NCBI GenBank assembly: GCA_963799725.1
Contig: CAWCYJ010000003.1
Location: 9,795-73,794 of the forward strand
Direction: 5' to 3'
Source: an uncultured Pseudomonadota bacterium
GTDB taxonomy: Bacteria; Chloroflexota; UBA5177; JAJPKF01
Length of the DNA stretch: 64,000 bases
The translations under genes were made by a program, and so were the position numbers. Below the pieces are notes generated by a model. That model saw only the letters and a list, made by a program, of their open reading frames with translations, made no database searches and was not told the DNA's origin. This document shows, piece by piece, positions 20,214 through 21,092 of this stretch (positions are counted from its first letter, which is position 1; every line of letters begins with the position of its first letter).

Positions 20214-20588
20214 TTACGATCTTGAGGAAATCACTATCAGGATGTCAAGGCCGACGAACACCAGCAGAGAAAACAACATGATTGCTTTTCCCGTGACCCG
20301 GGCGAGGTTTACCGTGATCTGTGGAAGGCTGCGAACCTTGACGAAAAGGTCTTCATCGTCAGGATTGTTGTAGAAGCCTAAGAACCAGTGCTGATCGTCG
20401 CCATAATCGACTGCCGAGTGCAGGCGAGCAAACGAGCCGACAATGCCCACGATCTCATAGATCGCGACAGCGGTCAGGACTACAACCGCCCACCACGGGG
20501 TACCGGCTGCCGCCTGCAGATCGCCGTGCGACATCACTCCCGCAATCATGAAGCGGAGGGAGAGCATTTGGGTGATTTCAGGATGCAA
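20214..20588 (-). CDS. Hypothetical membrane protein
   Basis: The ORF is an intact 124 aa with three hydrophobic segments. No family was recognised. Confidence 0.45.
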   Translation of the reverse strand: MHPEITQMLSLRFMIAGVMSHGDLQAAAGTPWWAVVVLTAVAIYEIVGIVGSFARLHSAVDYGDDQHWFLGFYNNPDDEDLFVKVRSLPQITVNLARVTGKAIMLFSLLVFVGLDILIVISSRS

Positions 20589-20795
20589 GCATCCACCATA
20601 AGATCGATGGACTCCTCATTGATCCTTCTCCCAAAAGTCTCCCATAAGCCACATTTTGCCAGGCGGTACAAGCCAGTGAACCGCCCCGAAGTGACGCTGA
20701 AACACCATCTCCCGCTGGCTCAATTTGGCTATGCTAAGCTTTTTTGTCTCACTGAACGATACCTCTGAGGTTTTGTTCGAGACATCCGTTCCCGT

Positions 20796-20870
20796 GCAGG
20801 TGTAGTTCAATCATTAGAACGGTCGCCTTCCAGGTGGCAAGTGTGGGTGTAAGTCCCACCGCCTGCTCCA
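20796..20870 (+). tRNA. tRNA-Gly (anticodon UCC) with encoded CCA and non-canonical D- and T-loops
   Basis: The cloverleaf reads GCAGGTG TA GTTC AATCATTA GAAC G GTCGC CTTCCAG GTGGC AAGT GTGGG TGTAAGT CCCAC CGCCTGC T CCA. It has a 7-bp acceptor stem, and U8, A14, A21, U33, U54-A58, G53-C61 and U73 are all present. The D-loop lacks GG, and the T-loop is TGTAAGT instead of TTCRANY. Confidence 0.75.
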
Positions 20871-21072
20871 AACCTCCTGACCACTTCTTACCATCACCCC
20901 CCGGGCGGACCGTGATGGTGCCGAGATTTGACTGCCGTTCCGAGGCTGTCGGGCTGCAGGGCAAGTTGGCGTAGCTGGTCCATTCGGCGTAAGGTCGAAA
21001 CAGCTAACAAACGCCTAATCTGGACGGCCACGTAAGCCGAGGGTCACGCCGCCTCCAGATTGCCTTTACTAC

Positions 21073-21092
21073 ATACCCTCCCAGGGTATAAT
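21073..21092 (+). promoter_or_regulatory. CsoR-type operator palindrome overlapping a TATAAT -10 box
   Basis: ATACCCT-CCC-AGGGTAT (21073-21089) has 7-bp perfect arms. TATAAT lies at 21087-21092, about 35 nt upstream of the permease start. A csoR gene is at the end of the operon. Confidence 0.6.

Follow-up and report, generated by a model that had tools for sequence, protein, structure and literature searches.

The question raised by this locus is what a bacterium does with a second glycine tRNA of the same anticodon when that second tRNA lacks the nucleotides of the canonical elbow. The gene, for a tRNA-Gly(UCC), lies at 20796-20870 on the plus strand of the window, a 64,000-nt stretch of contig CAWCYJ010000003.1 (assembly GCA_963799725.1; Chloroflexota in the GTDB lineage). 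It was singled out by an earlier reading made from the letters of the window (the sequence-only reading). ARAGORN, one of the checks proposed there, calls it as tRNA-Gly(tcc) and as the single tRNA in the window, and Rfam RF00005 covers 20796-20867 end to end with 51.5 bits against a threshold of 29 bits. As described below, this tRNA is an extra isoacceptor with an intact, selected fold. Judged by its sequence, it is probably a glycine carrier outside protein synthesis, and we give a probability of roughly 45% to the reading in which it is a structurally selected, donor-type tRNA-Gly(UCC) resembling the non-proteinogenic (NP) glycine tRNAs of staphylococci.

A complete cloverleaf with an altered elbow

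The window tRNA reads GCAGGUG/UA/GUUC/AAUCAUUA/GAAC/G/GUCGC/CUUCCAG/GUGGC/AAGU/GUGGG/UGUAAGU/CCCAC/CGCCUGC/U/CCA, the last three letters being an encoded CCA. Its cloverleaf is complete, with 21 of 21 stem pairs formed, three of them G.U. The 5' acceptor strand GCAGGUG (20796-20802) pairs with CGCCUGC, and includes G1-C72 and C2-G71, which belong to the identity set of glycyl-tRNA synthetase (GlyRS), and a U.G wobble at 6-67. The D-loop AAUCAUUA (20809-20816) has A14 and A21 and no G18-G19. The anticodon loop CUUCCAG (20827-20833) carries the anticodon UCC at 20829-20831. The T-arm (20843-20859) consists of the stem GUGGG/CCCAC, which begins with G49-C65, U50-A64 and G51-C63, and the loop UGUAAGU (20848-20854). 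This loop reads U54 G55 U56 A57 A58, with G53-C61 and U54/A58 retained. U8, A9, U33 and U73 are also present, and the variable region is AAGU.

Thus, the D-loop without GG and the T-loop with G55 and U56 are exactly as the sequence-only reading had them, and none of the canonical features that it listed (U8, A14, A21, U33, U54/A58, G53-C61, U73, CCA) is missing. Its argument against an indel artefact of the kind seen in homopolymers also fits the pattern of the differences: the loops as assembled (AATCATTA in the D-loop, TGTAAGT in the T-loop) differ by multiple substitutions, and the stems that flank them are perfect. Two further atypical traits had gone unremarked, C32-G38 and A3-U70. The second of these is G3-C70 in all three canonical glycine tRNAs of the same genome. 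Measured against an elongator tRNA, the window tRNA has none of G18, G19, U55 and C56, and in place of a 7-nt anticodon loop with a non-Watson-Crick 32-38 combination, it has one that can pair.

An extra isoacceptor with a selected fold

The genome from which the window comes (the host genome hereafter) comprises 26 contigs with a total of 2.82 Mb; it is 75.7% complete and has 47 tRNA calls by ARAGORN. The window tRNA is single-copy in it. A canonical Gly(UCC), with the D-loop AACGGCA and the T-loop TTCAATT, is encoded on contig C5, and Gly(GCC) and Gly(CCC) are likewise encoded. GG and TTC are present in every other tRNA of this genome. The window tRNA is therefore a second, extra Gly(UCC) isoacceptor.

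The sequence-only reading had stated that its interpretation would fall if the gene were called a pseudogene and a canonical UCC copy existed elsewhere. The copy on C5 does exist; the signs of a pseudogene, that is broken stems, lost identity elements or a lost 3' end, are not seen in the window tRNA. The three canonical glycine tRNAs score 70.6-71.6 bits with Rfam, and the window tRNA lies about 20 bits lower. Compared with the canonical Gly(UCC), 15 stem nucleotides differ, affecting five pairs on both sides and five on one side, and all 21 pairs are kept. When the same number of random substitutions was placed in the stems, all pairs were kept in none of 200,000 simulations, which argues that the fold is under selection and is not decaying. 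Thus, the altered elbow is real, and it sits in a structure that is maintained. In a 20-sequence alignment of glycine tRNAs, 94% of the cells are paired and 17 pairs show double-sided changes, and none of 500 shuffles reached the observed covariation of the cloverleaf. Overall identity, in contrast, is uninformative here, being 51-55 of about 76 positions for all glycine tRNAs compared.

The elbow is not evidently re-paired

The sequence-only reading proposed that the two altered loops compensate for each other, with C18-G55 and A19-U56 replacing the universal elbow contacts. This double compensation is not supported by the comparisons made here. The assignment depends on the register of the D-loop: a 1-nt alpha region gives C18 and A19, which is the register that had been adopted, and a 2-nt region gives A18 and U19. 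MAFFT picks the A18/U19 register, which results in U19.U56. A single A lies between A15 and A21, so that either A18 or A19 is possible, and never both. In simulations with random substitutions, two Watson-Crick-capable elbow pairs arose in 6% of cases when one register was allowed and in 12% when either was.

The tRNAs compared do not favor C18-G55 either. About 185,000 species genomes were scanned for Gly-like UCC tRNAs with G55, A49 being excluded (which leaves out the staphylococci). The scan gave more than 119 stretches, and the 80 loci listed contain about 75 true tRNAs from at least five phyla. Among these listed matches, all of the approximately 75 G55-type Gly(UCC) tRNAs have A18-G19 with G55-C56, and never C18; their D-loops are AGUAGCA, AGUAGUA, AGCAGCA, AAACAGCA or AGUUAGCA. 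In addition, phage tRNAs linked to Mom genes (see below) that carry G55-C56 can have an all-A D-loop, without an elbow complement.

True covariation of the elbow does occur in a genome of the same family as the host (G002). Its extra Gly(UCC), at L012:1501-1574 (G002:C5:670735-670805), has U19-A56 while keeping G18 and U55, and a canonical copy (L040) is present in the same genome. Because U19-A56 exists there, compensation is a reasonable idea in general, although it is not demonstrated for the window tRNA. The two extra copies share GGUGUAGUUCAA, the U6.G67 wobble, an altered elbow and their status as extra to a canonical Gly(UCC), which is of identical type in the two genomes. They differ in that 19-56 is the sole elbow pair swapped in the relative (G19-C56 to U19-A56), which also has U32-A38, a weak T-stem (-9.6 kcal/mol predicted), an Rfam score of 65.5 bits and another genomic context.

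Position 32-38 and the G55-type tRNAs

C32 and G38 of the window tRNA are Watson-Crick-capable, and their pairing would reduce the anticodon loop to 5 nt; RNAfold lengthens the anticodon stem. C32-G38 is found in one of 46 standard tRNAs of the host genome and in 4 of 200 distinct canonical tRNAs compared. It is of interest here as the 32-38 state is the trait that separates extra from sole-copy genes of the G55 type. In the extra set (73 genes among the matches listed), 38 genes have U-A at 32-38 and the other 35 have C-G, so that all are Watson-Crick-capable, and U32-A38 and C32-G38 interchange on otherwise identical Streptomyces stems. C32.A38 is found only in four G55-type genes with strong T-stems, again among the matches listed. 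Two genomes of the Candidate Phyla Radiation (CPR; Staskawiczbacteria and Saccharibacteria) and a Clostridia metagenome-assembled genome, or MAG (G466-G468), yielded no Gly(UCC) other than one of the G55 type. These sole copies (L063:6252-6325, L100 and L135) have C32.A38 and a strong T-stem.

In five genomes, from Streptomyces, Terrabacter, Intrasporangium, Ornithinimicrobium and a Chloroflexia MAG (G403), the G55-type Gly(UCC) is extra to a canonical copy of the TTC type. The predicted T-stems of these extra copies are weak in four of the five (-9.0 to -9.6 kcal/mol), and that of Streptomyces is about -10.1 with an uncertain register; their canonical partners are at -10.7 to -11.2. The extra copies with weak T-stems look like genuine analogues of NP tRNAs. 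They have in common with the window tRNA their extra status, G55, a Watson-Crick-capable 32-38 and an Rfam deficit of about 20 bits. Those of Terrabacter and Intrasporangium share with it the acceptor GCAGGYG/CGCCUGC and thus A3-U70, which is also present in the phage tRNA of L203. However, these extra tRNAs have A18 and keep G19-C56, whereas G19 and C56 are both missing from the window tRNA. They are conserved in many species and have T-stems that are predicted to be weak; the T-stem of the window tRNA is predicted to be strong, and its exact variant is a singleton.

An extra G55 Gly(UCC) is conserved in Streptomyces (about 50 species among the matches listed) and in the Intrasporangiaceae, where it is also found in Terracoccus (L062-L141, for example L122:4020-4091 on the minus strand, L128, L067:7810-7880 on the minus strand and L136:2533-2604 on the minus strand). 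It is marked by A18-G19, a UGC T-loop and a Watson-Crick-capable 32-38, and no account of such a class came up in the literature searched. The peptidoglycan bridges of Streptomyces and of genera of the Intrasporangiaceae contain glycine. The Streptomyces variant has an 18-nt T-arm, is missed by ARAGORN and scores 52 bits with Rfam (L122:3011-4091; L062:5562-6010). At the two loci checked, tRNA-Gly(GCC) genes follow it at a distance of 118-190 nt; L062 carries it as a tandem duplicate. In Ornithinimicrobium (L136:1527-5531), the extra tRNA-Gly is about 640 nt from a tmRNA gene (RF00023, 140 bits), and an M23 peptidase gene is located about 1.1 kb away on the opposite side. Transferase genes were found beside the G55-type tRNAs at none of the Terrabacter, Ornithinimicrobium, Chloroflexia MAG, CPR, Clostridia and Polyangiaceae loci.

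Likeness to staphylococcal NP tRNAs

Experimental proof of glycine tRNAs dedicated to tasks outside translation exists only for staphylococci, as far as the literature searched goes, and NP tRNA-Gly has been described as a staphylococcal lineage (PMC7826273, PMC12256121). The NP tRNA-Gly(UCC) species of S. aureus lack G18, G19, U55 and C56 and have a TGT or TGC T-loop. They bind EF-Tu poorly owing to A49-U65, U50-A64 and A51-U63, and FmhB prefers them via the D and T arms (PMC7826273, PMC4574755). The window tRNA resembles NP1-NP3 (Ia/Ib in S. epidermidis), the glycine donors from which FmhB, FemA and FemB build oligoglycine bridges, in several respects. It is an additional UCC isoacceptor, all four elbow nucleotides are absent, the T-loop is of the TGT kind, the glycine identity elements are kept and the genome encodes a dimeric GlyRS together with FemAB-family proteins. 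It is unlike them in having C32-G38 and A3-U70, in being single-copy and outside a tRNA cluster, in belonging to another phylum and in the absence of a T-box at the GlyRS gene.

The clearest departure from the NP tRNAs is in the T-stem. Using the additive energies in Table 2 of PMC3239215, which yield predictions only, the EF-Tu T-stem of the window tRNA is at -10.5 kcal/mol, next to -10.7 for its own canonical Gly(UCC) and -9.5 for the S. aureus NP tRNA; glycine tRNAs average about -10.8 kcal/mol (PMC7826273). By this prediction, 49-65, 50-64 and 51-63 are tuned to EF-Tu as in an elongator. As its T-stem is G-C, U-A, G-C and that of the NP tRNAs is A-U, U-A, A-U, the device that excludes the latter from EF-Tu is missing in the window tRNA.

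Charging with glycine is to be expected. The identity elements for glycine are G1-C72, C2-G71, U73, C35 and C36, and the dimeric, Thermus-type GlyRS also uses G10, U16 and C50-G64 (PMC9976931). The GlyRS of the host genome (C5:55809-57095) is of the dimeric type. The window tRNA has this entire set apart from C50-G64, which is U50-A64 here, and because the others are kept, it should be charged with glycine. The 3-70 pair, which is unusual in the window tRNA, has been reported to be important in yeast and not in the two bacteria studied (PMC9976931).

Likeness to phage tRNAs linked to Mom

Mom of phage Mu moves glycine from Gly-tRNA-Gly to DNA adenine (PMC13219725); that paper makes no mention of phage tRNA genes. 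A scan of viral contigs revealed 20 with G55-type Gly(UCC) tRNAs. In three of these, the tRNA is immediately upstream of a gene of the Mom family (PF25680, 105-142 bits): L199:7076-8963, which has two such pairs, L203:527-1331 and L201:1378-2168. In L211:6977-8423, the tRNA is upstream of a gene for a Dam-like domain fused to a phage GNAT domain. The two consecutive tRNA-Mom pairs of L199 follow a family B DNA polymerase gene. The T-loop of these cassette tRNAs is UGCAAGU, and 32-38 is C32-G38 before the Mom genes and U32-A38 in L211.

The window tRNA shares G55, a UGYAAGU T-loop, C32-G38 and an encoded CCA with the Mom-linked tRNAs. The closest match to its hallmarks is L203, which has A3-U70, C32-G38, UGYAAGU and a predicted T-stem of -10.3 as compared to -10.5 kcal/mol. 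As L203 has a strong T-stem and is linked to Mom all the same, a strong T-stem is no bar to a donor role. The differences are that the window tRNA has U56 where the phage tRNAs have C56, and a 4-bp D-stem with an 8-nt loop where they have a 5-bp stem with GAAAAA. In addition, it is chromosomal in a non-phage context, in contrast to their place beside a Mom or GNAT gene in a phage. Neither PF25680 nor PF22559 was found in the host assembly; a Mom gene could be unassembled, since the genome is only 75.7% complete.

Candidate users of the glycine

The host genome has eight reading frames that match the FemAB family: three FemX-like genes (C5:65981-66916, C18:25306-26397 and C7:110273-111319), one frameshifted paralogue and four paralogues of the PEP-CTERM type in one cluster. 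The FemX-like gene on contig C5 (PF02388, 108 bits) is divergent from and next to murJ (PF03023, 287 bits), and the gene of a Ser/Thr kinase follows it after 5 nt. Together, murJ (which encodes the lipid II flippase), the FemX-like gene and the kinase gene form a compact cell-wall module (C5:64142-68354). The kinase is PknB-like and contains a bacterial PH domain, and the arrangement suggests that the peptidoglycan precursor is branched.

The frameshifted paralogue (C7:109166-110136) is similar to the FemX-like gene on C18 and is split into two overlapping frames of 214 and 146 aa. This is probably an assembly indel error, or else a real frameshift. It adjoins a gene for a DegT-family aminotransferase. 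The four clustered paralogues (C26:76140-83732) are most like the FemAB protein associated with XrtA/PEP-CTERM (TIGR03019), and all score below its cut-off.

Proposed role and points that weigh against it

Taken together, these features are consistent with the following course of events. The dimeric GlyRS would charge the window tRNA with glycine. The loss of G18, G19, U55 and C56 from the elbow, together with an anticodon loop pinched by C32-G38, would make it ill suited to decoding, and the rebuilt modules may favor a glycyl-transferase that depends on aminoacyl-tRNA. The only recognizable candidates for such a user in the assembly are the FemAB-family enzymes. The best of these would be the FemX-like protein encoded next to murJ, which would add the amino acid to the peptidoglycan precursor.

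A wider proposal, which is tentative and falls well short of an even chance, is that the window tRNA is the first Chloroflexota case of a polyphyletic and undescribed class of donor tRNA-Gly(UCC), marked by G55 and a closed 32-38. In bacteria and phages, such tRNAs would be maintained in addition to the tRNA-Gly of translation and would supply glycine to Fem enzymes, which would branch peptidoglycan, and to Mom, which would hypermodify DNA. Here, exclusion from translation would be achieved by the elbow and the pinched loop and not by weak binding to EF-Tu, and the user would be the FemX-like protein by murJ.

Several observations weigh against a donor role. The T-stem is predicted to be strong (-10.5 kcal/mol), unlike those of the staphylococcal NP tRNAs and of most other extra copies. 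The existence of sole-copy genes of the G55 type implies that an A18.G55 elbow alone is compatible with translation. No recognizable promoter of the sigma-70 type was found by a promoter scan of the upstream intergenic region (20589-20795, plus strand), where one would be expected, and the -10-like score of the window tRNA is the lowest (tied) among the 47 tRNA calls of the genome. Most of the other tRNAs have TAGAAT, TAGACT or GATAAT 9-17 nt upstream. There is no transferase gene near the window tRNA, and its neighbors are uninformative. Concerning the Fem proteins, all frames score under the equivalog cut-offs that would indicate their amino-acid specificity. Of 41 related genomes, 37 likewise have Fem genes, and such a tRNA is missing from most of these; as Fem genes are nearly universal in the phylum, their presence by itself does not explain the tRNA.

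The distribution of the gene points in the same direction. No orthologue was found in a genome of the same genus (84% complete) or in 400 further genomes of the phylum, and two pattern scans of metagenomes, one for a Chloroflexota-type 3' half and one for G55 with U56, gave no matches. The 60 relatives of the Chloroflexia MAG that were scanned contain no orthologue with U56 and no further member of the G55 type. A BLAST search of 40 relatives with the 75-nt gene gave no match, and a covariance model built on the single sequence, which scores itself at 107 bits, next finds only canonical Gly, Thr and Arg tRNAs at 61 bits or less. The locus is not syntenic, as G001 and G003 share only a homologue of the DUF2461 gene, with no tRNA beside it.

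Alternative explanations

One alternative is that proposed by the sequence-only reading, a working second Gly(UCC) for translation whose elbow is tolerated or re-paired through C18-G55 and A19-U56. The elongator-like T-stem would suit it, as would the GlyRS identity elements, U33, U54-A58 and G53-C61, and the CPR and Clostridia genomes indicate that a non-canonical elbow can translate; U19-A56 in the related genome shows that 19-56 can covary. However, the tRNAs that translate as sole copies keep A18-G19 with C56 and C32.A38, and the window tRNA has neither of these. A canonical UCC copy is already present, G55 goes with A18 and not C18 in the listed genes, C32-G38 is rare (1/46 in the host genome and 2% of the canonical tRNAs compared) and the re-pairing needs one particular register, with a 6-12% likelihood of arising by chance. 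We therefore consider a translational role unlikely. It is similarly improbable that the tRNA is an orphan, that is a donor tRNA acquired horizontally, for example with a phage tRNA-Mom cassette, and now without its enzyme, weakly expressed or silent and bound for loss. Its hallmarks are nearest to those of L203, its occurrence in the Chloroflexota is sporadic (only the host genome, G002 and G403, with none in the same-genus genome or the 60 relatives of G403), the locus is non-syntenic and no promoter is recognizable, all of which speak for such an origin. Against this stand a fold without any decay and the lack of phage, integrase or Mom genes, both around the tRNA and across the assembled genome. 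Nor is the 3' end of the tRNA repeated in the window, and its flanking sequence shows no relation to that at L012 or L087.

A regulator or decoy in the shape of a tRNA, serving as the ligand of a T-box or another tRNA sensor or as bait for a tRNA-targeting toxin, would combine intact identity elements with altered ribosome-contact modules, as is seen here. Six T-box-like leaders were matched in the host genome, and the glyS T-box of S. aureus responds to NP tRNAs (PMC4574755). None of the six is at the GlyRS gene, though, no sensor or toxin gene is linked to the tRNA and the literature searched offered no precedent, making this a distinctly poor prospect. We give very little weight to the least credible explanation, which sees in the gene either an error of assembly or a dead pseudogene. 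Indel errors do occur in the assembly, the split Fem paralogue on C7 being an example, the Rfam score is 20 bits under those of the canonical copies and a canonical Gly(UCC) exists. But the changes are multiple substitutions confined to the loops, with 21 intact pairs, the CCA and the identity elements kept and a score well above the threshold. In addition, dozens of genomes that were sequenced independently, some of them complete, are altered at the same positions.

Genomic setting

The window tRNA gene is intergenic, with a minus-strand reading frame for a membrane protein on one side and a CsoR-regulated permease operon on the other. The neighbors comprise a DUF2461 gene, the gene of the 124-aa, two-helix membrane protein and the CsoR-regulated permease-YHS operon; no phage or integrase domains were found nearby. 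The membrane-protein frame (20214-20588, minus strand), which is divergent from the tRNA, is unannotated and has no family match, and a homologue of its product, which has two hydrophobic helices, is encoded in G002 (L190) with 59% identity. At 21065-21092, upstream of the permease-YHS/CsoR operon, a strong promoter-like TTTACT-16-TATAAT is superimposed on the palindrome ATACCCT-CCC-AGGGTAT, which looks like a CsoR operator. The sequence-only reading had placed the tRNA in a lower-GC stretch; the GC content is indeed lower, but only modestly so, being 0.554 at 20500-20999 as compared to 0.57-0.61 nearby. Finally, for most stand-alone tRNA genes of the host genome, the -10 box stands 9-17 nt before the mature 5' end, which implies that their leaders are very short.

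Significance

The comparisons suggest that an extra tRNA-Gly(UCC) with a rebuilt elbow is a recurrent solution, seen in the Chloroflexota, among phages and in many Actinomycetota. The phage genes for it stand physically beside Mom, a user of Gly-tRNA-Gly. If the donor reading of the window tRNA is true, there would be sequence rules by which donor tRNAs could be recognized in genomes, namely G55, a closed 32-38 and often A3-U70. It would also follow that tRNAs can be partitioned between the ribosome and a transferase without weaker binding to EF-Tu, and the finding would point to peptidoglycan branching dependent on aminoacyl-tRNA in this uncultured lineage. In annotation, genes of this kind are better left out of the tally of ordinary decoding capacity.

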